From: Patescibacteria group bacterium
Lineage (GTDB): Bacteria; Patescibacteriota; Patescibacteriia; Magasanikbacterales; UBA922
Direction: 5' to 3'
Assembly (NCBI GenBank): GCA_041658785.1
Contig: JBAZZL010000001.1
Coordinates: 5,478 to 69,477 of the forward strand
Length of the DNA: 64,000 bases
Shown here: one piece after another, positions 1,721 through 62,692 of the stretch
Numbering within the stretch: position 1 is the first letter of the stretch
Layout of the letters: the number at the start of each line of letters is the position of its first letter
Position numbers and translations under genes: made by a program
The notes under the pieces: generated by a model
What the model was told of the DNA's origin: nothing
The model's input: only the letters and a program-made list of their open reading frames with translations
The model's database searches: none

Positions 1721-1807
1721 TTCCGGCACTGGTAGGCGTTTTAGGGGCTGCCAATGAATAAATAATGTAAATAAACTGTTAATGTTGAGAGCGTTAAATA
1801 ATTCAAC

Positions 1808-1935
1808 TGTCATTCCCGCCCCCGTTTCCACGAGGGTAAACTCCGGCGGGAATCCAGTCGCCTCGTATTATAGCTTAGCCATGTTTCTGGATTCTGCCGG
1901 AGTTTATCCTCGCGCAGGCGGGGGCGGGAATGACA
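1808..1935. repeat. MITE-like family 1 copy (gtcattcccgcccccg ... cgggggcgggaatgac)
   Basis: Inverted termini gtcattcccgcc/ggcgggaatgac; internal ggtaaactccggcgggaatccagtcgc block shared with the copy at 51724-51829. Confidence 0.7.
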
Positions 1936-2048
1936 TATCCACCGCGAACCCCGGGGCAGAGCCCCGAGGAATTAGTTGATTAATAAAGCGAAGGGGCATA
2001 TCCGGGATGTTTTAGTCCTTAATCCGCGCCAGCCGAGGGCGGCAATTT

Positions 2049-3060: not shown

Positions 3061-3627
3061 TTACTCGCTCGCTCTCCCGGCATATTCTCCAGTCTCGGTA
3101 TTAACCAGCACCTCTTCGCCTTCTTTTATAAATATCGGAGCTCTTATTTTTAATCCATTGTCCAGCGCTATTTCTTTGGTAACATTGCCGCTCGCCGTGT
3201 CCCCTTTTACCGCCGGAGGCGCTTCTGCCACACTATACTTTATTTTTTTTGGCAATTCTATCGCCACCGGATTGCCATCATGCAACGCCATTACCACTAC
3301 CAGTCCGTCTTTCAAATATTTCGCGTCCTCGCCGATTATATTCAAATTAACATCCAAAGTTTCATAATTTTCTTGATCCATAAATGAATAAACCGCGCCG
3401 TTGTTATAAAGATATTGCATGCTTTTTCTGTTTATATAAACGGTGTCAACCGCTTCTCCGCTTTTGTAGGTAATTTCAATCGTCTTCCCCGAAGCAATTC
3501 CCTTCATTTTTGTTTTGGTAAAAGCCGCGCCCTTTCCCGGATTTACAAATTGAAAACCAACCACAGCATAAAGCTCGCCATGGCGGCGGATGACCGATCC
3601 CTTTTTAATGTCGTTGGTGTCTCCCAT
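3061..3627 (-). CDS. efp: Elongation factor P
   Basis: 188 aa. Conserved loop VNPGKGAAF carries the modifiable Lys (equivalent to E. coli K34). Three-domain EF-P layout. Confidence 0.93.
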   Translation of the reverse strand: MGDTNDIKKGSVIRRHGELYAVVGFQFVNPGKGAAFTKTKMKGIASGKTIEITYKSGEAVDTVYINRKSMQYLYNNGAVYSFMDQENYETLDVNLNIIGEDAKYLKDGLVVVMALHDGNPVAIELPKKIKYSVAEAPPAVKGDTASGNVTKEIALDNGLKIRAPIFIKEGEEVLVNTETGEYAGRASE

Positions 3628-3628
3628 A

Positions 3629-3760
3629 AAGCATTAAAGCACTAAAGCACTAAAGCACTAAAGCACTAAAGCACTAAAGCACTAAAGCACTAAAGCACTA
3701 AAGCACTAAAGCACTAAAGCACTAAAGCACTAAAGCACTAAAGCACTAAAGCACTAAAGC
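3629..3760. repeat. 9-bp microsatellite (gcactaaag) x about 14.5 in the efp upstream region
   Basis: Perfect tandem copies read directly. A second AT-rich repeat (ttttaatgttttaaag x3) lies at 3853-3897, overlapping the epmA 3' end. Confidence 0.9.
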
Positions 3761-3871
3761 AAAAAAAACATTCATTTTTGATTTTAATATTTGTTTGTAA
3801 TTATCTGTCACACGCCTTATTTTATTTTGCTTTTTTATTTTCTTGCTTTTATGTTTTAATGTTTTAAAGTT

Positions 3872-24042: not shown

Positions 24043-24119
24043 TGGTCGGGGTGAAAGGACTTGAACCTTCGGCCTTCTGGTCCCAAACCAGACGCTCTAG
24101 CCAACTGAGCTACACCCCG
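24043..24119 (-). tRNA. tRNA-Pro (TGG)
   Basis: Hand-folded reverse complement: CGGGGTG acceptor, anticodon loop TTTGGGA, T-loop GGTTCAAGTCC, 3' ACCA encoded. Confidence 0.85.
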
Positions 24120-24206
24120 AAAACATGATGCACGAGGCACGTAGCACGACTCATTTTGGACAATTTGTCGTGCGTCGTGCTGTGTGCATCGTGCCTCGTG
24201 AATAAG
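24120..24206. repeat. MITE-like family 2 (catgatgcacgaggcacg ... ttggacaatt ... cgtgcctcgtg), between tRNA-Pro and tRNA-Phe
   Basis: Imperfect inverted repeat around the ttggacaatt core. Homologous copies at 50968-51059 and 52640-52790, partial at 51136-51175 and 43640-43680. Confidence 0.65.
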
Positions 24207-29300: not shown

Positions 29301-30055
29301 CCTGCCGTAGTGAAAGTGTGGGTAATTGTTGCTTCGTTACCGATAATGGCATCCTCTATTTTCCATTCATAACTAATTATTGTTCCATCAGAATCAGTTG
29401 AATTATTGCCGTTTAGCGCGACTGGAGTATTGACATCGGCTGTGGCGCTCGCAGAAATAATTGCCGTAGGAGGATTGTTCGCTGGTGGTGTAAAACCTGA
29501 CCAATAGTTTTGAACGCCGGCAGTATTTCCGTTCGGGTGTTCTATCCAGTTTGAGCTGGTGTAATCTGGCAAAGAGGCGTCTTTTCTTTCCAGCGAATAA
29601 TCAAAGGCCGGGACATAGGTAAATTGTTCAACAAAATTGCCATCAGCGTCTTTTAAGCCGATTTCTTCTCCGCTTTCGTTCAGCGTACTCCATGAGCTAT
29701 CAAAAATAGTAACGCTTACACTCGGATAATCCGCTCGAAAATTAATATCGTTTTGGGTGATGACCGCATATTCTCCCGGGCCAATTAAATAATCATCTCC
29801 CTGAATTAAACTAAGTCCATGATTGGTTGCTTCTTCCCAAAATTTCCAGTCTTCCATATTTATTGGTTCGGTTCCTTTGTTAAAAATTTCTACCCATTCA
29901 TGCCCGCTGGATTCGTAATTGCCAATTTCATTAATTACAATGTCCGCATTATTTCCTAAAACTTTCCCGCTAAATAAAAAAACGCTCCCAAGCATTATAA
30001 TACTCGCGAGCGCTATACCCCCGTTTCTTTTCAGAATATTTATTTTACTATCCAT
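26354..30055 (-). CDS. Large secreted surface protein with five lamin-tail (LTD) domains, two PKD domains, an OB-fold-like module and a C-terminal TM anchor
   Basis: Signal peptide. LTD pattern repeated (VINEIGNYESSGHEWVEIFNKG..., VINEFVSDAPEGQNEWIELYNAS..., VINELVSDPADDAEEFVEIFNTT..., VINELLPNPAGADDDGEWIELKNTG..., VSEFIPNPAGSDAAEFIELWNPT...). PKD-like segments with WDFGDG. Terminal hydrophobic helix plus RRKK. Confidence 0.85.
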   Translation of the reverse strand: MDSKINILKRNGGIALASIIMLGSVFLFSGKVLGNNADIVINEIGNYESSGHEWVEIFNKGTEPINMEDWKFWEEATNHGLSLIQGDDYLIGPGEYAVITQNDINFRADYPSVSVTIFDSSWSTLNESGEEIGLKDADGNFVEQFTYVPAFDYSLERKDASLPDYTSSNWIEHPNGNTAGVQNYWSGFTPPANNPPTAIISASATADVNTPVALNGNNSTDSDGTIISYEWKIEDAIIGNEATITHTFTTAGTFAVTLTVTDDDGATDLETLNIVVSDSIPTPTSTPALIVINEFVSDAPEGQNEWIELYNASTLTVNLTGWTLADGVGTISSPTNTIETLGFAVIALASSKLNNSGDIIILKNPTGEIIDKAVYGNWDDGNTADNAPAVSDPNTVARIVDGQDTNNDKNDFAETATPTKGTDNQITAPALPAPPPPAGGGGALLPSFNPGSLVINELVSDPADDAEEFVEIFNTTGSMIALDSWWIEDGSETKTALAGSVAAKGYFVIEEPKGSLNNSGDIVKIFDPSGKEIDSVTYGTWDDGNLADNAPVPADPTSLIRKVNGQDSNNDYYDFVLTATITSGRANIITNTTPEGKTVAPATMPTNVVINELLPNPAGADDDGEWIELKNTGAETINLAGWKLGDSSSKRYTITQGTLSAGGFIVFKRSMTGIALNNTGGDEIALYGASGAVADKIRYTGSAGENESYARRDDNSWAWTVKSTPGTKNILEGKSAAPIIAIDVDTEVAVNEPVMFDASDTTDPDGDEMTFVWDFGDGGGGEGALVEHRFIAMGVYTIKLTVSDTSGNESEKNVIITVKNEADFAGGYLSTEPVEKIRVSEFIPNPAGSDAAEFIELWNPTAEEIDISQLKLDDEEGGSRAYTIPDGTIIAAGEYKVFGKQETKLALNNVSDSVRILYPDGTILTEVRYDDAPEGASYAPDTDENWTWTASITPGEANIISVPKAVAGTKITKNKSKYIKPVINTTLEKIREEDVGDRVKVAGIVAVLPGVLGSQYFYIVGSPGVQIYSYKKDFPSDLKVGDRVEVTGEISQINGEARLKTQTKDDIVKIDHPGEPQAKTLDVTDVGEGYEGWLAQVHGEITEIKSSYMYVDDGTEEVRIYFKRGAGINRQTLQLGDLAQVTGIVSRTKDGFQLLPRGQADIVKTGVAESAINNLPDSGAASSKDVAETYLTATAGGLTALLAGLFARARGAAVAGLVKRFGGVAVAVVRRKK

Positions 30056-30318: not shown

Positions 30319-31383
30319 TTAGTTGTTATCTAGTTCACCGTGATAGTAGCAATTATAGATGGAGATAATAGCCAAAAACAACGAGGCGATAATCGGCCCG
30401 ATCACAAAACCGGAAATACCAAAAAGAAAAATGCCGCCCAAAGTAGTAAAGAGAATAATGAGCGGATGCATTTGAGTATCCTTGCCAATGAGCGGCGGAC
30501 GGATAATATTGTCTATGGTGCTGATGAATAATCCGCCAATGAGGATAACCAGCCCTTGCCAGGTATTTCCAAGAGCAAGCATAATGATGCCGGCGGGAAG
30601 CCAGATAACAAACGAACCAATGGCCGGGACTACGGACAAAGCGATCATAATAATACCCCAAACCAAAGCTCCTTGAATGCCGGCAATCCAAAAAAAGATT
30701 CCGCCCAAAGTGCCTTGCAGACCGCCGACAATGAGCGTGCTTTTCAAAGTAGCTCTAGCCGTAGAAGTGAACTTCTGATAAAGCATTGCTTCATATTTAT
30801 CGCCCAAGGGAGAGACGCGCATGAGAAATTTGAGCAGGCGCGGGCCATCTTTGAAAAAGAAAAACAAAGTGTAGAACATGATAAACAGCATGAAGACAAA
30901 CTTGACTGACACTTGTGTTAAATTTTTAACATTATTAAATAAAAAGATGCTGATTACCTTGGTCGCGTTTGTGGCATAACCTGTCCATTCCGTTTTGATA
31001 TTTTCCACATAAGGAGCAAGGGGGGTGGACTCTAGCCATGCCGTAGCGCCTTGAACATTATTGATAAGACCGTCTCCTCGCGAGACTCGCGTGTACAATT
31101 CAATTGATTCATTGACAATGAGAATAGAAAGCAAGGTAAGGGGAAGGAATATGGTTACGATCACTAAAACCAAAACAAAAACGGAGCTTAAGCGCGGCAG
31201 TTTGATGTGTTTGTCCAGCCAGCTATATATCGGATAAAACAAAATTGCCAATACCGCGGCCCAGAAAATCGGATAAAAAAACGGACGAATGAGATAGAGC
31301 ATGGCAATGGTCAAAATGATGATCAACCCGAAAAAGAAGGCTGAGCGCATTGTGCTAAAATTTACTTTCTCGTTTTTCGGCAT
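30319..31383 (-). CDS. AI-2E family transporter (YhhT/PerM-like)
   Basis: Eight TM helices with the AI-2E conserved C-terminal region. The ORF extends to 31578 across a repeat; MPKNEK at 31383 is the likely start. Confidence 0.75.
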   Translation of the reverse strand: MPKNEKVNFSTMRSAFFFGLIIILTIAMLYLIRPFFYPIFWAAVLAILFYPIYSWLDKHIKLPRLSSVFVLVLVIVTIFLPLTLLSILIVNESIELYTRVSRGDGLINNVQGATAWLESTPLAPYVENIKTEWTGYATNATKVISIFLFNNVKNLTQVSVKFVFMLFIMFYTLFFFFKDGPRLLKFLMRVSPLGDKYEAMLYQKFTSTARATLKSTLIVGGLQGTLGGIFFWIAGIQGALVWGIIMIALSVVPAIGSFVIWLPAGIIMLALGNTWQGLVILIGGLFISTIDNIIRPPLIGKDTQMHPLIILFTTLGGIFLFGISGFVIGPIIASLFLAIISIYNCYYHGELDNN

Positions 31384-31394
31384 ATTTTTATTTT

Positions 31395-31500
31395 TTAATC
31401 CGTCTACGCCTGTGGGCTGCGCCGGACAAGAAGGTGGTTTAATTCCCCGCAGCTTGCTGCGGAACAAGAGTCCAGAGCTTGCTCTGGGGTTCATACCTTT
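31395..31500. repeat. Palindromic repeat family 3 (cttaatccgtctacgcctgtgggctgcgccggacaag ... ccgcagcttgctgcgg ... ccagagcttgctctggggttcatacc)
   Basis: The reverse-complement copy at 51238-51440 is interrupted by a family-1-like insert of about 100 bp. A partial copy lies at 31931-31975. Confidence 0.7.
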
Positions 31501-31657
31501 GATTTTTTTTAAGGCCCTTTGAGGTTTGGGGCGGCAATCGAACGAACTACGCCCCCTTTCCCTTTCAAAGTATAGCACAATTTACAAATCCACAAAATAG
31601 TCCAGCTTTTTGGTTGTCGGTTTTCCGCTCGTTATACCACTCAATTGTTAATCAAAA

Positions 31658-50967: not shown

Positions 50968-51059
50968 CCGAGTTCATGATGCATGATGCACACAACACGA
51001 CCCAATTTGGACAATTCGTGATGAATCATGCTGTGTGCATCATGTATCGTGATAAAAAC
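50968..51059. repeat. MITE-like family 2 copy between tRNA-Arg and tRNA-Ala
   Basis: catgatgcatgatgcacacaacacgacccaatttggacaattcgtgatgaatcatgctgtgtgcatcatgtatcgtg aligns to 24123-24205. Confidence 0.65.
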
Positions 51060-51132: not shown

Positions 51133-51237
51133 CTGTTTCGTGTTCATGATGTATAATACATGTAGCGTAATACATTACAATTGTATACACTAGTGTATAC
51201 AAAAATTGGTCAAAAGCCAATTTTTTATTATTTTGTC

Positions 51238-51440
51238 ACACGTGAAATAATCAATGGTATGAACCCCAGAATAAGCTTTGGGTCCTTGTTCCGCAACAAG
51301 CTGATGAGAATTAAATTGTTTTTTTGTCCGGCCCGTCTTCTCCAGCCCGCCAGCTGGCGGACGGGCGACGCAGGGTAAACTCCGTCAACTGGCGGAGACG
51401 GAACTTGTCCGGCGCAGCCCACAGGCGTAGACGGATTAAG
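51238..51440. repeat. Family 3 repeat copy (reverse complement of 31395-31500) split by a family-1-like insert (about 51300-51410)
   Basis: Termini align to both ends of 31395-31500. The insert carries cccgtcttctccagcccgccagctggcggacggg, related to 45-95. Confidence 0.65.
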
Positions 51441-51723
51441 GATTGATAAAATGTGTACAAATCTGTGGTTATGAGTGGTAGTATGTTAATAACTTTATCT
51501 GACTGGCAATAATAATCCTGCTATTTAAATTAAAAGGTTTTTTGTGGAACAAGAATTTAGAGATAAGTTTAAGATAAATAGGCGATTTAAGTTGAAAGAT
51601 AATAGATTTACGAAGCTATTTTAGATATAATTTATAAATTATTATTTATAATTTAGATATAAAATAATGTCGTACAATATAATATAGTTTATAAAGTTGA
51701 GAGCAGCGTTGAATAATTCAAAT

Positions 51724-51829
51724 GTCATTCCCGCCCCCGCCTGCGCGAGGATAAACTCCGGCGGGAATCCAGTCGCAATGCTGGATAAATTAGCCAATTT
51801 TCTGGATTCCCGCCTCCGCGGGAATGACA
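51724..51829. repeat. MITE-like family 1 copy
   Basis: gtcattcccgcccccgcctgcgcgaggataaactccggcgggaatccagtcgc ... ggattcccgcctccgcgggaatgaca. A related outer-arm remnant tttcgtaattcac lies at 51933-51946. Confidence 0.7.
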
Positions 51830-51993
51830 AATTAAAGCAAAATATCAATTATTCAACGGTCTAAAAGTTAAAAAGAAAGTAAGCAATCTGTCATTATGTG
51901 GTTGTCGCCGAATGACAATAAAGAGGTGGTTTCGTAATTCACAGTAATTACCAAACTTTTTAATAATCTTATTTTGTGGTATAATTTTTTTGT

Positions 51994-52650
51994 ATGAAAA
52001 AAATATTCACAGGATTAATAATCACTGCGCTGGTTTTGTGGACACAGCCAGTAAATACCGCAATGACTGGCGGGAGTTATAATATTCCTGTTGATAGTTT
52101 GATAATGTCAGAGGGTGATTTAATAATAGGCGGCAATTATTCGTTGGAGGGGGCGGTTGAGGGTATAAGCGCAGATGACACCAAGAGCGGAGGCGTCTAT
52201 TCATTGATTGGCGGTTTTGCCGGAGCGACTGGCTCCGGCTCATTAACCGTTTCTTTTAATAAAAGCTCTATCAGTCTGGATTTTGGAAGCAGTCCTGTTT
52301 CGATTGTTGCTAGCGACAGCTTGATACTTACTGTTACAGCCGACTCTATCACTGGATATGGCGCGACGATCTCTGAAAGCGGCAATTTGGCGTCAGGAGC
52401 GAATGATATAAACGACGTTTCCGATGGATCGGTTACGGCTGGTACAGAAGAATACGGAATTAGAACCAGCAGCGGCGATGGGTTGCTTGTAAGCGATACA
52501 GCGATTAATGGCTCGGTAGTAGTCGCATCTTCATATGTTCCAGTCTCAAATAGCCAAACTGCGGTTGTATTTAGCGCCGCCGCCTCGCAAAATACCAAGG
52601 CAGGCGCGTATTCCCACACTGTAACATTTACTATTACGGCCAATCCGTAA
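51994..52650 (+). CDS. Secreted protein, WxL-domain-like (C-terminal AGAYSHTVTFTITANP resembles the second WxL motif with W>F)
   Basis: Signal peptide. G/S/T-rich 218-aa beta-type sequence. C-terminal motif similar to AGxYxGTLTWTLxxxP of Gram-positive WxL surface proteins. Confidence 0.45.
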   Translation: MKKIFTGLIITALVLWTQPVNTAMTGGSYNIPVDSLIMSEGDLIIGGNYSLEGAVEGISADDTKSGGVYSLIGGFAGATGSGSLTVSFNKSSISLDFGSSPVSIVASDSLILTVTADSITGYGATISESGNLASGANDINDVSDGSVTAGTEEYGIRTSSGDGLLVSDTAINGSVVVASSYVPVSNSQTAVVFSAAASQNTKAGAYSHTVTFTITANP

Positions 52651-52766
52651 AAACATGATGCACGATTCACGCAGCATGACCCATGACATGATACATGAGG
52701 CAGATAGCATGAGGCAAGACGCGATGCATAATACGCGCAACAGGACTCAATTCGCCGTAATTCGTT

Positions 52767-55460
52767 ATGCATCATGCCGCGTGCGTTGCGCATCAGGTAG
52801 TTTGTATGTCTCGTTTTACCACAATCCTTTTATTTACTTCTCTAGTTTTGGGCAGTCTTTTTTTGGCCATGCCGTCCGCCATGGCCGTTACCATTTCTCC
52901 TGCGCGGCAAGCGGCAGTGATCAATCCTGGGCAGAGTCAGACAGTAATGGTGGAAGTGTTTAATGATGAAAGCGAGAGCAAAATTTTTGTTCCGGAGATT
53001 GATGCTTTTGCGATTGATGAGACAACCGGCGCGGCGATTTTTGGGCAGGAAGATGAAGCAAAAAATTGGATATCAGCGAACCCGCAAAAAATAGAACTGC
53101 GCCCCAATGAAGAGGGTGAATTTAATTTTATTATAGCTGTTCCTCTGGATGCCGAGCCAAGAAGCCGTTATCTTGGATTGTTTGTAAAACAAGAATCAAA
53201 AGAAGGCCGTGTGGCAGTAGATTCAAGGACAGGTTCGCTGTTATTTCTTCATGTTGCAGGCGTTGTTAATGAAGATTTAACGCGAGAAATATTTTCATTT
53301 GATCAAGATTGGACAACGAGCGGTCCTATTCAGCTGTCATTACGTCTGCGAAATAATGGCAACATCCATTTGATCCCCAAAGGACAGATTGTTGTTCGCG
53401 ACAGGCAGAACAATGAAATCAGAATTTTCACTATTAATCCAAGACAACGAAAGGTGCTGCCCAACGGCGCATGGGAAGATAAGTACGTTTTAGAAAGCGA
53501 GACAATAAAGGGGGCTTATGGTCCGATTCAAGCAACAGCGGAAATTATCTATGGGTTATCAGAAAAAAAAATTATGGATGTGGCAGTATTTTGGTTTGTT
53601 CCCAAATGGGCAATTGGTTTGGCTTTCATTCTAGCGCTTGGCGCAGCCATTATTTTTATTTGTTTCCGCCCGCCAAATCGGCGGGCGGGCGGCGCTCGGA
53701 ATGACAAACGCGCAAATCCTAAAAGTAATAGAAATAGAATTATGAGCCGAGATAGAAAAATTTTATTATCAACCATGAGTGTGTTATCGGCTTTCTTTTT
53801 TTTGTTTTTTGTTCATGCGGCGCAAACGGCTACCAGCCAAATTGATGTGAACGCGACAATTACCGCTATTTGCGGCAATGGGAGTATTGATAGCGGCGAA
53901 GAATGCGATGACGGTAATATTATAAATGGAGATGGGTGTTCTTCAGTTTGTAAAACAGAAAGCAGCGGAGGCGGTGCGTTGCCAGTCGCACCTCCAGTAG
54001 AGCCGCCGGTTGAACCTCCGGTTGAACCGCCAGTAGAGCCGCCAGTAGAGCCGCAGGTTGAACCTCCGGTTGAACCGCCAGTAGAGCCGCCGGTTGAATC
54101 AGCATTTCATACTTCGCCAGGCGCTGGATCATCTGTCAGCGGCGCGTATATTCCTTTGCCGGTTGAGGATGTTATTGATAATGAATTGAATCTTAATCAA
54201 AGCGAACCCGAAAAAAAAATTGTTAATATTTTTCAGAAGAAAGCGAGGGAATTTGTCCAAAATGCGTTTAAATTTTTAGGTCTGGAACAGACTGCTAAAA
54301 AAATTGGCGAGCAGGCGGTGAAAATGATTGGGATGTTCAAGAGAACAGCAGATAATCCTATAGTTGAAAAAACAACAAGAAGACTGATTGCGCCAGGTGT
54401 TGTGGCCACTTCTGTTATTATAGTAACGCCATCGTTGTGGAGTATTCTTTTTCCTTTGCTGCGTTTTCTATTTCTGCAGCCATTGCTATTGCTTGGCAAA
54501 AGAAAGAGAAAAGAGTGGGGGGCGGTGTATAACAGTTTGACAAAAATGCCGCTTGATTTAGCAACTGTTCGGCTGATAGATCCAAAGACGCGCAAAATTC
54601 TTCAATCTCGGGTTACGGATAGAAAAGGAAGATTTTTATTTATTGCCGAGCCGGGCGACTATACGTTGGAAGCGGCCAAGCAAGGATTTCAATACCCAAC
54701 GAAATTGCTGGCAGGAATTAATGAAGATGGAAGAATTACGGATGTGTACCATGCCGAGCTCATACATGTAGAAGAAGCAAATACAAGCATAACTCCAAAT
54801 ATACCTGTTGATCCTGACGGGGAGACAAAACCTATTCGCCGCGTTGTCTTGGAGAGCAGGGTGCGAGTGGTACAGCATACGGTCTCCGTTTTTGGCATCG
54901 CGGCGACACTCATCGCTTTTTACATTAGTCCGGTGTGGTACGTGGCGGTTTTTCTCGCGGCGCATATTGGTTTGTATATTCTTTTCATTCATTATGTTAA
55001 GCCAAAGAAACCAAAGGGTTGGGGCATTGTCTATGATCAGTATGATAAAAAACCAATTGGCAGAACAGTCGCCAGGCTGTTTAGCAAAGAATACAATAAA
55101 TTGGCAGCGACAGAGCTGACTGATAAAAAAGGCCGGTACGCCTTTCTTGCGGGGCCAAATGATTATTATGTGACATTTGAAAAAGAAGGGTATAAAGAAG
55201 GGCGCACCAAGGACATCAATTTGAAAGAAGCAGAAGATGTTATTGTCAAAGAAGATGTTTCAATGGAAAAGAAAGGTGATGATTCAGCAAGTTTGTCTGG
55301 CAAGCAAATGCTGTCCAGCTATGAGAAAGTTTCTGATTTTATTGATAGCCAAAAGAGCGGAGAAGCAACAAAAGTAAAAGTAGACGAAGAGAAAAAAGCT
55401 TCGCCCGTTTCTCCTGCCGATAAATCTGAAGAGAGCGAAGACGCTGGTAATAAAAAATAG
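52767..55460 (+). CDS. Large surface/membrane protein: signal peptide, ectodomain of about 270 aa, TM, myxo-type Cys-rich repeat, (PVEPP)n linker, TM helices, two carboxypeptidase-regulatory-like domains, acidic tail
   Basis: CGNGSIDSGEECDDGNIINGDGCSSVC (TIGR02232-like). PPVEPPVEP x about 10 (54000-54100). VRLIDPKTRKILQSRVTDRKGRFLFIAEPGDYTLEAAKQGF and ARLFSKEYNKLAATELTDKKGRYAFLAGPNDYYVTFEKEGY (CarbopepD_reg-like). Confidence 0.7.
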   Translation: MHHAACVAHQVVCMSRFTTILLFTSLVLGSLFLAMPSAMAVTISPARQAAVINPGQSQTVMVEVFNDESESKIFVPEIDAFAIDETTGAAIFGQEDEAKNWISANPQKIELRPNEEGEFNFIIAVPLDAEPRSRYLGLFVKQESKEGRVAVDSRTGSLLFLHVAGVVNEDLTREIFSFDQDWTTSGPIQLSLRLRNNGNIHLIPKGQIVVRDRQNNEIRIFTINPRQRKVLPNGAWEDKYVLESETIKGAYGPIQATAEIIYGLSEKKIMDVAVFWFVPKWAIGLAFILALGAAIIFICFRPPNRRAGGARNDKRANPKSNRNRIMSRDRKILLSTMSVLSAFFFLFFVHAAQTATSQIDVNATITAICGNGSIDSGEECDDGNIINGDGCSSVCKTESSGGGALPVAPPVEPPVEPPVEPPVEPPVEPQVEPPVEPPVEPPVESAFHTSPGAGSSVSGAYIPLPVEDVIDNELNLNQSEPEKKIVNIFQKKAREFVQNAFKFLGLEQTAKKIGEQAVKMIGMFKRTADNPIVEKTTRRLIAPGVVATSVIIVTPSLWSILFPLLRFLFLQPLLLLGKRKRKEWGAVYNSLTKMPLDLATVRLIDPKTRKILQSRVTDRKGRFLFIAEPGDYTLEAAKQGFQYPTKLLAGINEDGRITDVYHAELIHVEEANTSITPNIPVDPDGETKPIRRVVLESRVRVVQHTVSVFGIAATLIAFYISPVWYVAVFLAAHIGLYILFIHYVKPKKPKGWGIVYDQYDKKPIGRTVARLFSKEYNKLAATELTDKKGRYAFLAGPNDYYVTFEKEGYKEGRTKDINLKEAEDVIVKEDVSMEKKGDDSASLSGKQMLSSYEKVSDFIDSQKSGEATKVKVDEEKKASPVSPADKSEESEDAGNKK

Positions 55461-55623
55461 TTTTTCTTAAAAAAAAATGACTTATTAACATGTCATTTTT
55501 TTGTTATTTATGATAGAATATAGATGAAATCATCAATGAATGCATCATTGAAGATTTCATTAATCAGCCCTGCTCGCGCGGCAAATATTTGTGAACGCGG
55601 CAGACGCCTAACTTACGAAATCC

Positions 55624-58600
55624 ATGTTTGTTCGTAAGCTTTTTTGGGCAATAAACAGAAAGGTTCAGAAAACAGATGAGAACCGCTCGTTTGTGTTTTT
55701 GGTTATTTGTATTACAGCATTTGCGAGCTTGTTTACTTTTCTCTTTTTGTTTGGCCTGCAGGGCAATCGGGTTGAAGCGGCTTCTCCACCAAGCATTATC
55801 ACTTATCAAGGCAAGCTTTTGCAAAGCAGCGCTTCGGTTACAACAACGAAAAAAATGGGGTTTTCTATTTACGATTCTTTGACCGGAGGCAATATTCTTT
55901 ATACGGCATCTGGAACTTTGGCTGCTAGCAATACTGTTAACATTATTCCGACTAATGGAGTTTTTTCAGTAGAAATTGGCAAGACTACAGGAGCGACCAG
56001 CACCAATTCTCTGGGTTCATCAATATTTCAAAATAATCAAAGTCTTTATCTTGAAGTAATTGTTGTTGATAGCGGGGCAACCACAACATTGTCGCCAAGA
56101 AAGCAACTGACTACTGCCCCTTACGCATTTAATTCTGAATACTTGGCAGGCGCGGCTGCGACGAGCACTGCTTCAACCACAACTTACATTCCTATTTCAG
56201 GCAGTGATGGCAGTTTTTCTTTTAATACCACAACGATTTCAAATTTAATTGTTTCTGGATTTGTCAGAACCTCATCAACTTTATTGTTGGGCTCGGCTGG
56301 CGGCAATGATGATTTGTTTATTGACGGAACGCGGGTTTTTGTCGGTACAAGCACTTGGGGCGGCGGCGCTGCCGGCTTGCTGGCGCTTGATGCTGACAAA
56401 GCGAATTTAATCGGTCTCTCCATTCGCGCCAATTCGTCAAAGAATGCTCTGGTCATTGAAGGCAGTAACGCGTCTTCTGTTTTCGTGATTGATGCCGCCG
56501 GCGGAGTTTCTGCCTCAAGCTCAATACGCGCGTACGGCAATGTTACTTCCACCGGTATTTTGTATGCAAGCAACGGTTTAATTTCCAGTGCGAGTTCAAC
56601 ATTTGCTTCCAATCTGCAAGTGACTGGCGGGGTCTGGGCATCTTCCACATTACAGGTTACCAACACCTCCACGCTATATAATGATTTACTTCTTGGCACT
56701 GCGGCCTTCGGTCATCTCACCGGCACCAACAATCTTTTGGTCAACGGCCAGTCCGAGTTTGACGGCACGGTTTGGTTTGATGGTTCGCTTCGCGCTTCAT
56801 CTACTTTGCTATCAACGGGACTTATCACTGCCTACGATTCAGTCTCGGTGGCGAAGAATGTAACTTCCACCGGCATTATCTACGGCTTGGGCGGGCTGAT
56901 TTCCAGCGCTTCATCCTCATTTGGCGGACTTTTGACTGCCTCCGGCGCTTTGGATGTGGAGGGAGCGATTACCGCGTCGTCTACTTTTCTTGTTGGCGGA
57001 TCATCCGGCTCTGACGATTTCTACGTGTCGGACGGATCGTCCCGTTTTGGCAATACTAACGCCAGCAGTAGTTTGGCGATTTATGGTTATGTAACTACGA
57101 CCGGCAACATTGAACCGCAGCATAATAATGCTTATGATCTCGGCAAATATAATAATGCCTGGCGGAATGTTTACGCGTCCGGCACTCTGATTGTCGGCGG
57201 CACGGGGACTTCCACTTTTGGCGGGGGCGTTCAGACCGCGACGTTGGATGTTACTTCCCAGAGCGCGAGCTCCACTTTTGCCAATGGTATTATTTTATCT
57301 AAAGGTTGCGTGCTCGTTGGCGGAACTTGTTTATCTGCCGGCGGTTCTGTCGCCGGTTCCGACGGTCAGATTCAATACAACAACGGCGGGGCATTTGGCG
57401 GCGCGAGCGCGCTGGTTTATGACGACGGCACCAATCGCGTGGGCATCAACAGCTCAACGCCACAGGCGCGGCTTTCGGTTGAAGACACGGCTGAACAATT
57501 CCGGCTCGGTTATAATTCTGGAAATTATGCGTCGTTTACTGTCGGCTCTAATGGGGTGCTTACTATCAACCCGTTAGCTTCAGGAACATCTGTCACCACC
57601 ACGTTGTCTGGCGGATTAACAGTTGACTCTAATAGTTTAATAGTTGATTTTTCAACGAATCGGGTGGGCATTTCAACATCTTCTCCCTCGGCTCTTTTTG
57701 CCGTCGGCGGCAACGCTTTTTTCTCCGGCGATATTTCCAATGTCGCGAACATCACCGCCACCGGCACGGTTAATTTCACCGGTGCGGCGGTAACAACGAC
57801 GATCTCGGGCGGATTGGTGGTGGATTCTACGACGTTGGTGGCGGATTATTCGACGAGTCGAGTGGGGATTGGGAACGCATCACCGGGGGCACCACTTCAT
57901 GTTTTGACTAATTCAAGTGGCAGAACAATACGATTAGAAGAAAATTCTGGAGGGGAATATGTGGAGTTTGGAATCAATAGCAGCGGCGATTTTACCATTT
58001 ATGATGATATAAACCTTCCATTATTTACCGTCAACAATCTTAATGGCTATGTGGGAATAGGAGATACGGATCCGGATGGGATGTTGGAGTTATCGTACGA
58101 CGGCGGGGTAAAGCCGTCCTTCTTGGTCAGTTCTTTAGATAATAATGATGGCGATGTTTTTGTTATTAATTCCAGTAAATATGTTGGTATTAACTCTTCT
58201 ACCCCCCAAGTCCGATTGGCGGTAGAGGACACGGCCGAACAATTCCGCCTTGGTTATAACTCTGGCAATTACGCTTCGTTTAGCGTGGTTGCCGACGGCG
58301 CGCTAATTATTACTACGGCCGGTACGGATGAAGATATTACTTTGCAAACAGGCTCGTTCAGCAATGCTTTGTTTATTGACGATTCAGCCACTACTGTCGG
58401 AATCAATTCATCAACTCCTTGGGGCAAGTTTTCTGTGGAAATGGATACAGTAAATCCAGCGTTTGTTGTCGCTAACAGCGGTTCATCAACGCCGGCACTG
58501 TTTGTCTCCGGCGTTAACAAGATGGGCAGAATCGGCATGGGCACGGTCGCCCCGGGAATATCAACCGGCAATGACCCAGTCCTTACTTTGGAGAGCGCGA

Positions 58601-60444
58601 GTTACGCGCCGAGTATTGAAATTTCGCGTAAAAGCGATGGTTTAACAGACGCGGAGACAGTCGGGGTATTACGATTTTTCAGCGGCTCCAACACCCAAAG
58701 ACAATTAGCGGCAATTGAAACCATTGTTGACGGTACGAATGAGGACGCCGGAGAACTGGTATTTTGGACAACACCCACTGGCGGTTCTATCACCCGGCGC
58801 ATGACCATATTGGATACCGGTGAGATTGGGATCGGCACTACCGCACCGGTCCGTCCATTGGATGTTAGCGCTTCCGATGGCCAAAATTTACGTTTGACGC
58901 ATGATCAGTCCGCTGTTAATTATACTGATTTTCTTACCAACGGCAGTGGCGAGTTGGGTATTTTTCCAAGAGGCAGCGCTCCTTTGGTTATGATTGACGC
59001 TAATTCCAATACCGCGGCACTGCGCCTGCGCGGCGCGGACGATCCGGTTGAGGTCGTTGATATATACGTTGGCACAAGCGGAGAATTAATTCTTAACGCT
59101 ACCGCGGGCACTGGCGCGGCCGCTTTTATTGATCTGCGTCCCGAAGATAATCAGTATGGTGTGCTTATCCGCGAGTCAGACGGCACGGGCACGGCTACTT
59201 ACGCCAATTTGTATGTTACGGACGCGACTGATGATTATTTGACGATTAATGTTAATTCGGTTACTGATGGAGACGCTTTAGTAATCACGGCGGCTGATTT
59301 AGTTGGTGTGGGGACTTCAACTCCGTGGGGTAAATTTGCGGTGGAGATGGGAACAACCAATCCGGCGCTGGTCATTTCTAACACCGGTTCATCAACGCCC
59401 GCCTTCTTTATCGGCGGGGTGAATCAGAATGGCCATATTGGAGTAGGTACGAGCACGCTTTCGCAGGCGCTCACGGTGGAAGGTTCAATTTTGGCTTCTA
59501 ACTTGTATGGCGGGGCAGTGAATGTGACGGTTGATGCCGGCGGCAAAATTATTAGAGACCCGTCCGACGTGCGGCTTAAAGAAAATATAAACACGATTCA
59601 AGGGGCATTGGATAAAGTGCTGGGGTTGCGGGGCGTTTCTTTCAGTTGGAAACCCGAATCCAATATGGGCAGTCAGACGGATTTTGGTTTGATCGCGCAA
59701 GAGGTGGAACAGGTGGTGCCGGAATTGGTTAGCCATCCGTCGGTCGGCTGGATGGGTGTTAAATACACCAATATGGTCGGTTTGCTTATTGAAGCAATCA
59801 AAGAACAGCAAACACAAATTCAATCACTCGCTATTGGCAATAATTTGCAGGGAAATCTAAATGGAAACATTACCGCGGATAAATTAACGGTGCGCGGAGA
59901 GGCCGCGTTTGGCCGCGATACTGTGGGCCAGGCGAAAATTTTGGCTGGCGCGACCGAAGTCCGCGTTACTTTTGCAGAGGAATATGAACATCAGCCGATT
60001 GTTACAATTACCTTGCGCGGTGAAGAAGGGCTGGCGGCTGATGTTAATTATGCGGTGGTCAATGAAAACACGCGGGGATTTATCATCAAGATCAGCCGCG
60101 CGGTTGATGTTGATTTGTCATTTAATTGGCACGCGTTTGGCAGCAGCGGCGGGAAAGTGTTTGTGAGCGATGGGGGGGTGCTGGATTTACAGATTGTTGT
60201 GGAGGAAGAGATCGCTGGTGGTGCGGGTACCGCCGATGATACGAGCGATAGGACGAATACGACGGATGGGACGGATAGGACGAATGTGGACGCGGTCGAC
60301 ATGGTGGATGCGGTGGATACCGCTGACGCGACGAATACGGCGAATACAGTGGATATGACGAGTGGGACGGATGAGACAAATATGACTGACGATAGTAACG
60401 GTGAACCAGCGGAGGAAAGTCCAGATGGAGAAGGATCACTATGA
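55624..60444 (+). CDS. Giant tail-fibre-like surface protein (1606 aa) with an internal peptidase-S74 intramolecular-chaperone domain and an acidic Thr/Asp-rich C-terminal tail
   Basis: N-terminal TM. Ser/Thr/Gly-rich beta-helix-like repeats with internal duplications (VGINSSTPQ[AV]RL[SA]VEDTAEQFRLGYNSGNYASF x2; VG..TSTPWGKF[SA]VEM.T.NPA x2). S74 motif DPSDVRLKENINTIQGALDKVLGLRGVSFSWK...FGLIAQEVEQVVPELV...VKYTNMVGLLIEAIKEQQTQIQSL at about aa 1290-1400. Confidence 0.8.
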   Translation: MFVRKLFWAINRKVQKTDENRSFVFLVICITAFASLFTFLFLFGLQGNRVEAASPPSIITYQGKLLQSSASVTTTKKMGFSIYDSLTGGNILYTASGTLAASNTVNIIPTNGVFSVEIGKTTGATSTNSLGSSIFQNNQSLYLEVIVVDSGATTTLSPRKQLTTAPYAFNSEYLAGAAATSTASTTTYIPISGSDGSFSFNTTTISNLIVSGFVRTSSTLLLGSAGGNDDLFIDGTRVFVGTSTWGGGAAGLLALDADKANLIGLSIRANSSKNALVIEGSNASSVFVIDAAGGVSASSSIRAYGNVTSTGILYASNGLISSASSTFASNLQVTGGVWASSTLQVTNTSTLYNDLLLGTAAFGHLTGTNNLLVNGQSEFDGTVWFDGSLRASSTLLSTGLITAYDSVSVAKNVTSTGIIYGLGGLISSASSSFGGLLTASGALDVEGAITASSTFLVGGSSGSDDFYVSDGSSRFGNTNASSSLAIYGYVTTTGNIEPQHNNAYDLGKYNNAWRNVYASGTLIVGGTGTSTFGGGVQTATLDVTSQSASSTFANGIILSKGCVLVGGTCLSAGGSVAGSDGQIQYNNGGAFGGASALVYDDGTNRVGINSSTPQARLSVEDTAEQFRLGYNSGNYASFTVGSNGVLTINPLASGTSVTTTLSGGLTVDSNSLIVDFSTNRVGISTSSPSALFAVGGNAFFSGDISNVANITATGTVNFTGAAVTTTISGGLVVDSTTLVADYSTSRVGIGNASPGAPLHVLTNSSGRTIRLEENSGGEYVEFGINSSGDFTIYDDINLPLFTVNNLNGYVGIGDTDPDGMLELSYDGGVKPSFLVSSLDNNDGDVFVINSSKYVGINSSTPQVRLAVEDTAEQFRLGYNSGNYASFSVVADGALIITTAGTDEDITLQTGSFSNALFIDDSATTVGINSSTPWGKFSVEMDTVNPAFVVANSGSSTPALFVSGVNKMGRIGMGTVAPGISTGNDPVLTLESASYAPSIEISRKSDGLTDAETVGVLRFFSGSNTQRQLAAIETIVDGTNEDAGELVFWTTPTGGSITRRMTILDTGEIGIGTTAPVRPLDVSASDGQNLRLTHDQSAVNYTDFLTNGSGELGIFPRGSAPLVMIDANSNTAALRLRGADDPVEVVDIYVGTSGELILNATAGTGAAAFIDLRPEDNQYGVLIRESDGTGTATYANLYVTDATDDYLTINVNSVTDGDALVITAADLVGVGTSTPWGKFAVEMGTTNPALVISNTGSSTPAFFIGGVNQNGHIGVGTSTLSQALTVEGSILASNLYGGAVNVTVDAGGKIIRDPSDVRLKENINTIQGALDKVLGLRGVSFSWKPESNMGSQTDFGLIAQEVEQVVPELVSHPSVGWMGVKYTNMVGLLIEAIKEQQTQIQSLAIGNNLQGNLNGNITADKLTVRGEAAFGRDTVGQAKILAGATEVRVTFAEEYEHQPIVTITLRGEEGLAADVNYAVVNENTRGFIIKISRAVDVDLSFNWHAFGSSGGKVFVSDGGVLDLQIVVEEEIAGGAGTADDTSDRTNTTDGTDRTNVDAVDMVDAVDTADATNTANTVDMTSGTDETNMTDDSNGEPAEESPDGEGSL

Positions 60445-60995
60445 TAGTTCAGCAGACGAAATTGGTTCCGGCACATGGAGGGTATAGAAAATTGCGTTCG
60501 TATCAGAATGCGACGATTGTGTATGATCTTACAGTAGTGTTCTGTGATTTGTACATTAACAAGTTTAGCAGGACAAAGGATCAGATGGTTCAAGCGGCTC
60601 GCAGTGGAAAGCAGAACATAGTAGAAGGCAGTATGGCATCGGGCACCTCAAAGAAGACGGAGATAAAATTGGTGGGGGTGGCGCGGGCCAGTTTAGAAGA
60701 GCTGCTTGCGGATTACGAGGATTTTTTGCGACAGCGGAGGATGGCGGCTTGGGGGAAAGATGACCCCAAGGCGCGAGGAGTCCGGCAGTTGTCCTACGGG
60801 TCGGATAGGTCATATATGACTTATAACGCCTATTTGGAGAGTCCTGAAGAAGGAGCCAATATGATGGTTTGCCTTATTCACCAGACAAACTATTTACTGG
60901 ACCAACAACTGCGCGCGTTGGAAAAGCAGTTTTTGCAAGACGGTGGCTTTACAGAAAGACTTTACCAGCAAAGGAAAAGCTACCGTGGCTATTAG
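60441..60995 (+). CDS. Four-helix-bundle protein (TIGR02436; Avd / 23S-rRNA-intervening-sequence-protein family)
   Basis: YRKLRSYQNATIVYDLTVVFCDLYI...TKDQMVQAARSGKQNIVEGS...ARASLEELLADYEDFL matches the family pattern. ATGA overlap with the giant gene stop. Confidence 0.65.
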   Translation: MIVQQTKLVPAHGGYRKLRSYQNATIVYDLTVVFCDLYINKFSRTKDQMVQAARSGKQNIVEGSMASGTSKKTEIKLVGVARASLEELLADYEDFLRQRRMAAWGKDDPKARGVRQLSYGSDRSYMTYNAYLESPEEGANMMVCLIHQTNYLLDQQLRALEKQFLQDGGFTERLYQQRKSYRGY

Positions 60996-61018
60996 TTTGA
61001 CATCTAAACTAGCGCCTC

Positions 61019-62692
61019 TTGACAGGGCGTTTTTTTTGTGTTAATTTAGAATTAAATCAGTTCTTTCTGCGTTCGGCTGCGCGAGTCGCGGTCGGCGCAT
61101 ACAAACCTAAGAGGGACATCATGGTAGCGAAGCGTCAGGTGCGATTTCTTTGGGCGCTGACTTTCGTCCTCGTCGCCGTCATGGCGGCGAGGTTCTGGAT
61201 GTACACGGTAGATGACGCGTTCATCTACTTTCGGTATGCGGCTAACTGGCTGGCCGGGCTTGGCCCGGTGTTCAATGCCGGCGAGCCGGTGGAGGGCTAC
61301 ACCAGCCCGCTCTGGCTTGCCGAGTTGACAATGTTGGGCTGGATTGGGTTGTCTCTGCCGCTCGCCTCCAAGGTTCTTGGATTGTTGTACTTGGTGGCGA
61401 CCATCCTTTTCTTTCTGCTCCAGTGTGATCTGAAAATGAAGGTGGGGGCGCTCCTCGTCGCTCTTTATGGCGAAGCTGTTCTGTGGGCTGTAGGAGGGCT
61501 GGAGACATTGGCGGTTGCGGCACACCTTCTCACCGCTGTCGTGATGTTCTTCAGGATGAAGAACGTGCGGCAGGCGAGTGGTGTCGGAGTACTTCTTGGT
61601 CTCGCCTACTTAGCCAGACCGGAGGCGGTGTTGCTTTTCGGAGTGTTGCCGTTAGTCGCTGTCAGTTCCGCGAGAACTGACAGGATGGTGAGGCGGTGCA
61701 TTCTTGCGGTCCTTGGGATAGGTGGAACCATCGTCATCAGTCACCTCGTTTGGCGGTATTCCTATTACGGGGAGTGGCTACCGAACACGTTCTTTGCCAA
61801 GGCCGGCGGACCAGAAATGGTGCCGCTTGGCCTTGAGTACGTGGAGGGATGGCTCCCATGGGTTCTACTGCCTGTGGCTATGGTAGTGGCGGGGCTGGCA
61901 TATCCGGAAGTGCGCCGATATGCATGGGCCGTTTTGCTCATCGCCCTACCATGGACAGCTCACGTGGTTTGGGCCGGCGGCGACCACATGCGGGCACACC
62001 GTTATTTGGTGCCGCTCTTTCCCCTTTTCATTTGGGCAGCGGCAAAGACGGCGAGCTACCTCTGGCAGAAGACCGCCAGGTTGCGGCCGGCGATCATTGT
62101 GTTGGTTCTTATCCAGGCCTGTTTGCAGGCGTGGCTGGGAACCAAGTTGAACGACCAGTCGGAGATGACTGTTGTCCAAGGCAGGTTCATCGGCGAGTGG
62201 CTTGATGATAATCTGCCGGAGGACGCGGTCGTTGCCGGCAACATCGCCGGAGTAATTCCGTATTACTCTCGGCGGGCGTTCATTGACATGCTGGGTCTCA
62301 ACGACATGGTGATCGCCCGCACCCCCGCGGTAGAGCTTACTATCCGGCAGCTCGCGCGGTTGAGCGCCTGGGCCAATCGGCCGGGGCATCTCCGTGGAAA
62401 CGCGGAGTATGTTCTTGGCCGGCGTCCGGATGCTATCATCGTCGGTGCGACCAACGGTTGCGGCGGGCTGCTTTCGCATCACTCCCAGCCGTTTTTTCGA
62501 GCGGACTTTCCTCTGCTCGCCGAGCTCCAACCGCTCAACGGTTTGGTCTATCAACCGCGAACGGTTGAAATCAGACCAAGTCAGGAGGATCTTGCCGCCG
62601 CAGCGCGATACTTTGACCCCGGGCTCCTGGATCCCATCATGTTCTGTTTTTGGGAAAGGATTCCGGGGCAGCGATTGGTTATGGTGGAATGA
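61019..62692 (+). CDS. GC-rich polytopic membrane protein, putative GT-C-fold glycosyltransferase (ArnT/PMT/arabinofuranosyltransferase-like)
   Basis: At least 10 TM helices. First-loop motif YTVDDAFIYFRYAANWLAGLGPVFNAGEPVEGYTSPLW (DD motif typical of GT-C enzymes). GC content far above that of neighbouring genes. Confidence 0.5.
   Translation: MTGRFFCVNLELNQFFLRSAARVAVGAYKPKRDIMVAKRQVRFLWALTFVLVAVMAARFWMYTVDDAFIYFRYAANWLAGLGPVFNAGEPVEGYTSPLWLAELTMLGWIGLSLPLASKVLGLLYLVATILFFLLQCDLKMKVGALLVALYGEAVLWAVGGLETLAVAAHLLTAVVMFFRMKNVRQASGVGVLLGLAYLARPEAVLLFGVLPLVAVSSARTDRMVRRCILAVLGIGGTIVISHLVWRYSYYGEWLPNTFFAKAGGPEMVPLGLEYVEGWLPWVLLPVAMVVAGLAYPEVRRYAWAVLLIALPWTAHVVWAGGDHMRAHRYLVPLFPLFIWAAAKTASYLWQKTARLRPAIIVLVLIQACLQAWLGTKLNDQSEMTVVQGRFIGEWLDDNLPEDAVVAGNIAGVIPYYSRRAFIDMLGLNDMVIARTPAVELTIRQLARLSAWANRPGHLRGNAEYVLGRRPDAIIVGATNGCGGLLSHHSQPFFRADFPLLAELQPLNGLVYQPRTVEIRPSQEDLAAAARYFDPGLLDPIMFCFWERIPGQRLVMVE

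Follow-up and report, generated by a model that had tools for sequence, protein, structure and literature searches.

Little is known of how bacteria of the Candidate Phyla Radiation (CPR) find and hold their hosts, and only type IV pili and, recently, Pam pili have been tied to host attachment. Pam pili are most prevalent in Saccharimonadia and Microgenomatia, their operons co-localise with a gene for a 'tail fibre-like protein', and three of their components, PamC, PamD and PamR, carry a C-terminal transmembrane (TM) helix (Troman et al., 2026; bioRxiv 10.64898/2026.03.03.709456). Such a helix is also present in the WxLIP proteins of Firmicutes, which have the architecture DUF916-DUF3324-TM, are encoded beside one small and one large WxL protein, and are predicted to complete the WxL sandwich with a strand of their own (Hassan et al., 2023; PMC10599100; PDB 9i1y, 9i25). 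A third system is represented by the MAT fibres of Bdellovibrio, which are found on the predator surface and recognise prey. They comprise a signal peptide, an invariant N-domain of ~130 residues and a long trimeric fibre, which ends either in an S74 domain (with an SDxxxK motif, Bd3182 being cut at S782 of 922) or in other tips; the N-domain 'would presumably tightly bind a surface element', although its partner is unknown (Caulton et al., 2024; PMC10769870). Here we describe a gene cluster, lying within a 64,000-nucleotide stretch of chromosomal DNA (the window) from the metagenome-assembled genome (MAG) of an ultrasmall member of the Patescibacteria, that unites these three separately described systems.

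The cluster consists of four open reading frames (ORFs) on the plus strand, g1 to g4 (Table 1), which lie exactly where a first-pass annotation of the sequence had placed them; the second (g2, listed at 52767-55460) is two genes fused, here termed g2N and g2C. The product of g1 is identical to NCBI WC862_00265 and is best described as an incomplete immunoglobulin (Ig)-type, pilin-like protein resembling PamT and WxL, g2N as its putative membrane-anchored, chaperone-like partner with two Ig domains (WxLIP/PapD-like), and g3 as a fibre of MAT type. We favour, at roughly even confidence, the reading that this is a lineage-conserved chromosomal locus for cell-surface adhesion, in which a strand-complementation module may anchor or assemble a fibre used for host attachment. 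The suggestion in the first-pass annotation that the cluster is a candidate host-attachment machinery remains the best reading of it, given the analogy that MAT fibres, Pam pili and WxL clusters offer.

Conservation of the gene order and fusion of two genes in g2

Conservation was assessed in the neighbourhoods of g1 homologues and in a sample of one genome per species scanned with the fibre N-domain, both scored with our own hidden Markov models (HMMs). This gave 70 CPR loci, 56 of them with enough upstream DNA to be judged. In 43 of these 56 species-level genomes g1 and g2N lie upstream of a fibre with a MAT-type N-domain: the order is g1-g2N-g2C-fibre in 28 and g1-g2N-fibre-g2C in two, while 13 have g1-g2N-fibre with no g2C seen. 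Tandem fibre pairs are present at three loci. The loci belong mostly to Candidatus Magasanikbacteria / Magasanikiibacteriota (Parcubacteria group), and the same flanking housekeeping genes (PBP1, PolA, holA and RmuC) recur across relatives; the locus is therefore a core chromosomal one and not an island. Co-conservation in related genomes, on which the first-pass annotation had staked the association of its four genes, thus holds for g1 to g3 and does not extend to g4. At three loci a gene for a tetratricopeptide-repeat protein of 762-774 aa abuts the start of the g1 homologue (L002, 7709-9997; L003, 812-3100; L006, 7674-9998).

In all 46 relatives scored, g2N and g2C are separate genes. The g2N gene of relatives codes for 281-341 aa, comprising a signal peptide, ~250 residues, and then a TM helix with a short basic tail behind it, and is often overlapped by 4 nt by a g2C gene of 767-1345 aa. 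In the window the two share one frame with no stop codon between them, and the linker RPPNRRAGGARNDKRANPKSNRNRI runs into MSRDRKILL..VHA, then AQTA, which is the signal peptide, with its cleavage site, of the second protein. The first half of the fusion is listed with a start at 52767, although gene callers and the relatives favour 52806. Since g2 joins two genes that are separate in relatives, the cluster amounts to five genes' worth and not four. The fusion in this genome is new within the literature searched, and it is not the artefact of a single assembler, as the same junction is found, identical, in two further assemblies (L084 from ENA and L085 from Logan); since both could stem from the window's own or related samples, their value as a check against sequencing error is limited. 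The fused protein retains its topology, passing from outside through the TM helix to the inside and then, by the internal signal sequence, outside again, and signal peptidase could separate the two halves. A G+C-rich perfect hairpin (CCGCCCGCC-AAATC-GGCGGGCGG; 53666-53688) stands within the basic linker of this otherwise A+T-rich gene and could be a trace of how the stop codon was lost.

The pilin-like protein, its putative partner and the fibre

The g1 protein has a signal peptide ending in VNTA, a conserved N-terminal segment (aa 24-79) in which the family alignment reveals three GGxYx[IL] motifs, and a beta-sandwich (aa 84-216). In the AlphaFold2 (AF2) monomer model, which has a mean pLDDT of 79.8, the sandwich is predicted at pLDDT above 90 and the N-terminal segment is disordered. 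Nearly all Foldseek matches of this model in the PDB are donor-strand-complemented subunits or TasA-like proteins (FimA, CfaB, the pilin domain of PapG, FimG, Csu, CS17/CS20 and TasA/TLP); the E-values are weak (3.5e-3 to 7e-2), and the match list is very consistent. A PDB sequence search with the g1 profile gave no meaningful match. Among family models, NCBIfam CPR_Pam_pilin_C is matched by the window copy at E = 5e-5 (23.4 bits, below the cutoff of 55) and by 27 of 29 relatives, and CPR_pilus_PamT by 26 of the 29 (best 1.6e-15), with no competing family. We consider g1 to be a pilin-fold protein distantly related to PamT and to the C-domain of Pam pilins.

The first-pass annotation had likened the C-terminus of g1 to the WxL anchoring motif. 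Indeed, the strictly conserved strand on which the protein ends, YSHTVTFTITANP, fits the distal WxL pattern YXXX(L/I/V)TWXLXXXP with W->F and L->I, but the Trp of this motif is absent from all 29 family members, so that the spacing alone is retained, and Pfam WxL matched neither g1 nor its relatives beyond one of the 29, at E = 0.088. Membership of the WxL family was accordingly rejected, and by sequence g1 is nearer to the Pam pilins of CPR bacteria than to WxL. Two longer homologues, of 344-362 aa (L005, 10001-11035; L019, 4636-5724), have an extra inserted or duplicated N-terminal region and could be two-domain pilins nearer to PamA/B.

The partner, g2N, has a signal peptide with predicted cleavage after AMA. 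Its AF2 model (pLDDT 82.8) is of two beta-sandwich domains (aa 33-150 and 158-264 of the segment) and a C-terminal TM helix, which is followed by a basic cytoplasmic linker. The top Foldseek matches are the WxLIP structures of Enterococcus faecium, 9i1y and 9i25 (the latter described as 'bound to long WxL'), at E = 3e-10, and the next are chaperones of the chaperone-usher pathway (CfaA, CsuC, Caf1M, FimC, CupB2, DraB and EcpB) together with RbmA. Pfam WxLIP_PGBD (formerly DUF916) is matched by six of nine relatives (best 4.4e-6), whereas neither Pfam WxLIP_HBD, in the search with g2N, nor the PDB, in a sequence search with the g2N profile, gave a meaningful match. The lead towards DUF916 and WxL models given by the first-pass annotation therefore proved right for g2N, which is WxLIP-like, and comes down to a resemblance for g1. 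Within g2N the segment GSRTGSLLFLHVAG is a candidate for the strand that may insert into the g1 sandwich.

The second half of the fusion, g2C, begins with its own signal peptide, with a predicted cut between VHA and AQ, and a Cys-rich repeat at 53865-53963 (TIGR02232, 44.6 bits against a cutoff of 20.8; DUF4215, 28.7 against 27). A proline linker (53982-54100) leads into a TM block, the stretch KRKRKEWG with a first CarboxypepD_reg domain (54519-54701), a TM hairpin, the stretch KPKKPKGWG with a second such domain (55056-55229; 50.6 bits against 32.3 for the two stretches) and a Lys/Glu-rich tail. This agrees with the disulfide repeat, the several TM helices and the two carboxypeptidase-regulatory domains recognised at first reading, with TIGR02232, DUF4215 and CarboxypepD_reg all scoring above their cutoffs. 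The linker, by comparison, had been described as (PVEPP)10 on a perfect 15-bp repeat and is in fact PVAP + (PVEP)x8 + PVE, that is (PVEP)x9 with one P-to-Q change, encoded by a 12-bp unit that is imperfect, its copies differing from one another synonymously (matches of 78% at period 12 and of 98% at period 48). The C-terminal block of ~380 aa, containing the TM segments and both CarboxypepD_reg domains, is homologous in the separate g2C genes of relatives, and in these several repeats of fn3-like and Ca-binding type occupy the region of the Cys repeat and linker. To judge from the basic stretches, both CarboxypepD_reg domains probably lie on the cytoplasmic side.

The fibre protein g3 starts with a basic n-region and a hydrophobic core, and its signal peptide ends in RVEA, before ASPP. 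Directly afterwards, aa 48-206 match the NCBIfam model Bdello_MAT_N (NF053851) at 32.6-40.3 bits (E = 2.7e-10), and among related fibre N-domains 35 of 42 match this model and no other family. When g3 was compared by BLAST with 42 related fibres, aa 1-200 alone were found to be common: between 74% and 98% of the fibres align there and 0-6% elsewhere. The fibre is thus a mosaic, with a kept N-domain, an exchangeable shaft and tip, and, in the case of g3, a shaft that is unique.

At the far end of the fibre, Pfam Peptidase_S74 (PF13884) matches aa 1314-1369 with 60.6 bits against a cutoff of 22, and matches to the PHROG tail-fibre profiles are confined to aa 1133-1403 of g3, where the profiles reach their own C-termini. 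Because these profiles stop there, the S74 domain can be taken to end near aa 1402, with 204 residues to follow, as the first-pass annotation had recognised when it described a giant protein with an internal S74 domain, about 200 further residues and an acidic Thr/Asp tail. Its catalytic residues are present on alignment: Ser1314 (codon 59563-59565) and Lys1319 (59578-59580), in the sequence PSDVRLKEN (SDxxxK), stand at the dyad positions of phage S16 gp37 (6f45) and MYRF (7dc3), and the domain is, on this evidence, apparently competent for catalysis. An S74 domain is found in only five fibres among 77 genome loci, four of which carry SDxxxK with 292-409 residues after the Ser.

The residues that follow S74 (aa 1403-1545) belong to a large family. 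A word-index search found only three fragments, and it took an exhaustive HMMER search to recover 1101 representative clusters at E <= 1e-3, 293 of them at E <= 1e-10. Almost without exception the match is close to the C-terminus, in proteins of 600-4300 aa, and among the best 148 proteins S74 is directly upstream in 102 (median gap 6 aa), with a low-complexity tail afterwards (median 87 aa). Pfam H_lectin (PF09458) is matched over its full length by 29 of 38 family members (best 1.7e-4), and no other family recurs; its cutoff of 24 bits is reached by no member, the window copy scoring 12-13 bits (E = 0.13-0.18). A PDB sequence search with the profile of the domain gave no match. The internal position of S74, which the first-pass annotation considered unusual, is unusual indeed beside phage spikes but is normal for proteins that combine S74 with a lectin-like domain. 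The last 61 residues of g3 are ordinary low-complexity sequence, rich in Thr and Asp, and the tails of homologues differ in composition. In three other fibres (L009, L044 and L073) the C-terminal 150 aa hold a second type of terminal beta-sandwich, with the pattern ..GFVV[RK]E..F[DN]W[VMI]V.., in place of the H-lectin-like domain; it too is followed by a low-complexity tail, and in L073 some 400 residues are inserted between it and S74.

Since the PHROG families matched by the S74 end of g3 are those of tail fibres, and since two tRNA genes and repeat-rich non-coding DNA stand just upstream of the cluster, the locus might be seen as the remnant of a prophage or tailocin that left its tail fibre in the chromosome. 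We regard this as very improbable. The phage profiles cover only ~200 residues ahead of aa 1403 in a protein that has a Sec signal and a cellular MAT N-domain, no other phage gene is present, and the position of the locus between RmuC and downstream housekeeping genes is kept in many species. Nor was a close relative found in a viral contig collection, where a single-sequence scan with the post-S74 domain detected nothing. The prophage reading was therefore rejected on its conserved synteny, its lack of phage genes and its lack of viral relatives.

The identities of the domains, the Ser/Lys dyad, the conserved gene order and the mosaic build of the fibre are shown by the results above. How the parts might work together can be set out from the conserved adjacency of the genes and from the published WxLIP-WxL, Pam and MAT data, from which we infer the physical interactions, the S74 processing and the role in host attachment. 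All proteins of the cluster would be exported by Sec. Held in the membrane by its C-terminal helix, g2N would complete the g1 sandwich with a strand of its own, in the manner of WxLIP with WxL and of PapD-like chaperones with pilins, and g1, with or without g2C, would form the base on which the conserved N-domain of the fibre docks, everything beyond this domain being freely exchanged shaft and tip. The fibre itself would be a trimer whose folding is nucleated by S74 from the C-terminal side, after which S74 would cut at Ser1314. The resulting C-terminal piece of 293 residues, made up of the chaperone, the H-type-lectin-like domain and the acidic tail, might be shed as a soluble trimer or kept non-covalently, and it would be the processed fibre that touches the host cell.

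Several observations weigh against an adhesion locus of this kind. In 13 of the 56 informative genomes the fibre stands alone within the available upstream DNA (second copies in the same MAG included), and in one genome (L002/L003) the g1/g2N module has no adjoining fibre, a gene for the GTPase YchF coming next instead; since both situations occur, module and fibre can exist apart. No such module was found near the MAT-N proteins of Verrucomicrobia, Armatimonadota and Kiritimatiellae. Family matches are also distant: the N-domain of g3 does not reach the Bdello_MAT_N cutoff of 60, the g1 relatives score far under the curated cutoffs (38-57 bits against 240 for PamT and 16-35 against 55 for the Pam pilin C-domain), and all WxLIP_PGBD matches, including that of the window copy (E = 0.22), are below cutoff, while no family library scanned assigns a function to g2C. 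Left uncleaved, the signal sequence of g3 could be enough to anchor the fibre. Finally, a cut by S74 would remove the lectin-like domain from the fibre.

As module and fibre each occur without the other, it stays reasonable, if rather unlikely, that two independent adhesion systems share a neighbourhood, g1, g2N and g2C building a short pilus or wall complex of Pam/WxL type in which g1 polymerises through its N-terminal segment, and g3 being anchored separately by an uncleaved signal-anchor. The conserved N-terminal extension of g1 resembles the donor strand of chaperone-usher pilins, and a consensus scan gives g3 a promoter-like site of its own, both of which speak for such an arrangement. 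Yet, if nothing tied the genes together functionally, it would be hard to see why 43 of 56 genomes keep them in one order and orientation with short gaps; the N-domain, which adjoins the module, is the sole part of the fibre that the whole family conserves; and the cluster has none of the shaft pilins of PamA/B/E type. These points keep the joint adhesion locus as our preferred reading. A bolder extension of it, which we offer as speculative and put lower again, is that g1 and the WxLIP-like g2N (with g2C) constitute a dedicated anchor or assembly adaptor for MAT-type trimeric fibres, and so the unknown partner of the MAT N-domain; that WxL/WxLIP, Pam and fibre loci are branches of one ancient strand-complementation system of monoderms; and that the S74 cut releases or unmasks a trimeric H-type-lectin module.

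Feature coordinates, the neighbouring gene g4 and the genomic setting

Table 1. Features of the cluster and its borders, numbered by position in the window
Feature	Position	Strand	Basis
Promoter-like site TTCACA-18-AATAAT, 27 nt 5' of g1	51938..51967	+	Consensus scan alone, which is no evidence of function
g1, 218-aa secreted pilin-fold protein	51994..52650	+	ORF, HMMs, AF2, Foldseek
g2N, chaperone-like (WxLIP/PapD-like) part of the 897-aa ORF	52806..53741	+	Fold, relatives
Fusion junction in basic linker, then ATTATGAGC; internal ATG at 53742	53666..53744	+	
g2C, polytopic membrane protein	53742..55460	+	Pfam, NCBIfam, hydrophobic segments, charge counts
Promoter-like site 5' of g3	55485..55514	+	Consensus scan only
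g3, 1606-aa MAT-type mosaic fibre	55624..60444	+	ORF; NCBI name 'tail fiber domain-containing protein'
g3 N-terminal conserved domain, aa 48-206	55765..56241	+	Bdello_MAT_N match
g3 S74 intramolecular chaperone/autoprotease domain, aa 1290-1402	59491..59829	+	Pfam, PHROG, alignment
g3 post-S74 domain, aa 1403-1545, divergent H-type-lectin-like beta-sandwich	59830..60258	+	HMMER family
g3 Thr/Asp-rich acidic low-complexity tail, 61 aa, loose 9/18-bp periodicity	60259..60441	+	
g4, 184 aa, four-helix-bundle protein with suffix domain	60441..60995	+	TIGR04258, TIGR02436; NCBI 'four helix bundle suffix domain-containing protein'
Terminator-like hairpin + T-run, 16 nt past g4	61011..61039	+	Fold -15.7 kcal/mol, z = -3.4

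The last gene, g4, had been annotated as an Avd-like gene translationally coupled to the fibre. Its start does lie on the ATGA of the g3 stop codon, and it exceeds both NCBIfam cutoffs (TIGR02436, 28 against 24; TIGR04258, 75.4 against 40), but a functional tie is not borne out, as no g4-like gene stands beside any of the other 34 fibres examined. Homologues of g4 at 393 metagenome loci share 61-71% identity, so that the gene is better conserved than g1 to g3, and they are found directly behind SecA (with the C-terminal motif CPCGSGLK; L125, L139) or DnaK (L120, L121), and behind membrane proteins and other giant surface proteins, often overlapping the upstream gene by 4 nt. Similarity between these loci is confined to the ORF, with no conserved DNA flanks of the kind that would be a sign of a mobile element. 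The gene behaves like a small, freely relocating one; it is a real member of a known family and a neighbour outside the fibre system.

Its superfamily of four-helix bundles includes the Avd proteins of diversity-generating retroelements (DGRs), and this, together with the overlap with the g3 stop codon, would fit a scheme in which the acidic tail of g3 is a hypervariable target and g4 part of the diversification machinery. Such a scheme has almost nothing to recommend it. A pair of template and variable repeats is absent from the whole 64-kb window, genes like g4 accompany SecA, DnaK and unrelated genes and not other fibres, and the low-complexity tails of homologues are unrelated to that of g3. 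The first-pass annotation had proposed a comparison of the 60.1-60.45 kb tail across strains for hypervariability; L084, the ENA assembly, has exactly the same tail (L085 ends at window position 54037, short of it), and those of homologues are simply different. No reverse transcriptase was found among the ORFs scanned, the remaining ORFs of the window being unscreened, and the rejection of the DGR reading rests on the missing repeat pair and on the failure of g4 to be conserved with fibres.

The neighbourhood of the cluster in the window includes PolA, holA, RmuC, a class A penicillin-binding protein and tRNA genes. Over positions 41976-62649 the L084 assembly, which comes from the same population, differs from the window by two indels, one of them of 1 nt in the g2-g3 spacer, and by no substitutions. 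The 860-nt non-coding stretch 5' of g1 (51134-51993) is made of repeat elements found again in intergenic regions at other places in the window (1790-1936, 31381-31508, 24117-24201 and 50968-51052); a 41-nt segment of it is the perfect reverse complement of 1896-1936, and an 85-nt element is common to two tRNA spacers. No Rfam family was matched by the repeat elements upstream of g1. Elsewhere in the window, an 8-nt unit, TAAAGCAC, is present in ~17 tandem copies at 3627-3766, just past the start codon of a minus-strand ORF (3061-3627), and a minus-strand gene at 26354-30055 codes for a 1233-aa protein with five lamin-tail domains, PKD domains and a C-terminal OB-fold. A gene related to the latter lies near the g1/g2N module at L006.

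Comparison with described systems

Among the S74 proteins of phage endosialidases and tail fibres and of MYRF, g3 shares a Pfam match above threshold, the same spacing of Ser and Lys and a closing helical segment. In phages the domain is C-terminal and is discarded, whereas in g3 a folded domain and a tail come after it, an arrangement that is widespread. In MYRF the S74 domain is likewise internal. The ending formed by S74, a lectin-like domain and a low-complexity tail is combined in no paper of the literature searched, and the locus defines it as a widespread type of fibre ending that is without a family model.

Clusters of WxL and WxLIP genes in Lactobacillales and Bacillales resemble the locus in combining a membrane-anchored two-Ig protein, a small secreted beta-sandwich protein and a large adhesin. 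In structure g2N matches WxLIP best, and the C-terminus of g1 keeps the distal WxL spacing, without its Trp and without a match to Pfam WxL. The large protein here has an N-terminal domain of MAT type and not a WxL domain at its C-terminus.

With the Pam pilus the locus has in common a secreted pilin with a truncated Ig fold, a two-domain chaperone-like protein with a C-terminal TM helix, the lack of an usher and a tail-fibre-like gene nearby; members of the g1 family also hit the models for PamT and for the C-domain of Pam pilins, albeit far below their cutoffs. It differs in several respects. The two-domain shaft pilins PamA/B/E are absent from the cluster and from 50 related loci, g1 being single-domain except in the two longer variants; the lineage is that of the Parcubacteria group / Magasanikiibacteriota; there is no ATP-synthase neighbourhood; and a conserved polytopic protein, g2C, is added. 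WxL is not mentioned in the Pam preprint (bioRxiv 10.64898/2026.03.03.709456).

The closest likeness for the fibre is the S74 subgroup of the MAT proteins of Bdellovibrio bacteriovorus, with which g3 shares a signal peptide and, directly after it, a beta-rich N-domain (~130-150 aa), then a fibre that is long and variable, and the SDxxxK motif in an S74 domain; in both cases the family is mosaic, with the N-domain alone common to paralogues. The N-domain of g3 scores below the NCBIfam cutoff, however (40 bits against 60), and the host of g3 is a CPR bacterium of monoderm type and that of MAT a diderm predator. In g3 the S74 domain is internal, with 292 residues after the Ser as against 140 in Bd3182, and an H-type-lectin-like domain and an acidic tail are added. 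Moreover, g3 stands behind a pilin/chaperone-like module, which is unreported for Bdellovibrio.

Every component of the cluster therefore has a described relative, be it MAT (2024), WxLIP (2023, with structures in 2026), Pam (2026) or S74. What is new, within the literature searched, is that these components occur together, in a single conserved order, in another CPR lineage, and that a Pam-like pilin is linked by structure to a WxLIP-like partner. The comparison yields testable partners for two questions raised by the earlier systems, namely what holds MAT-type fibres on the cell and what role is played by the 'tail fibre-like' gene beside pam operons.

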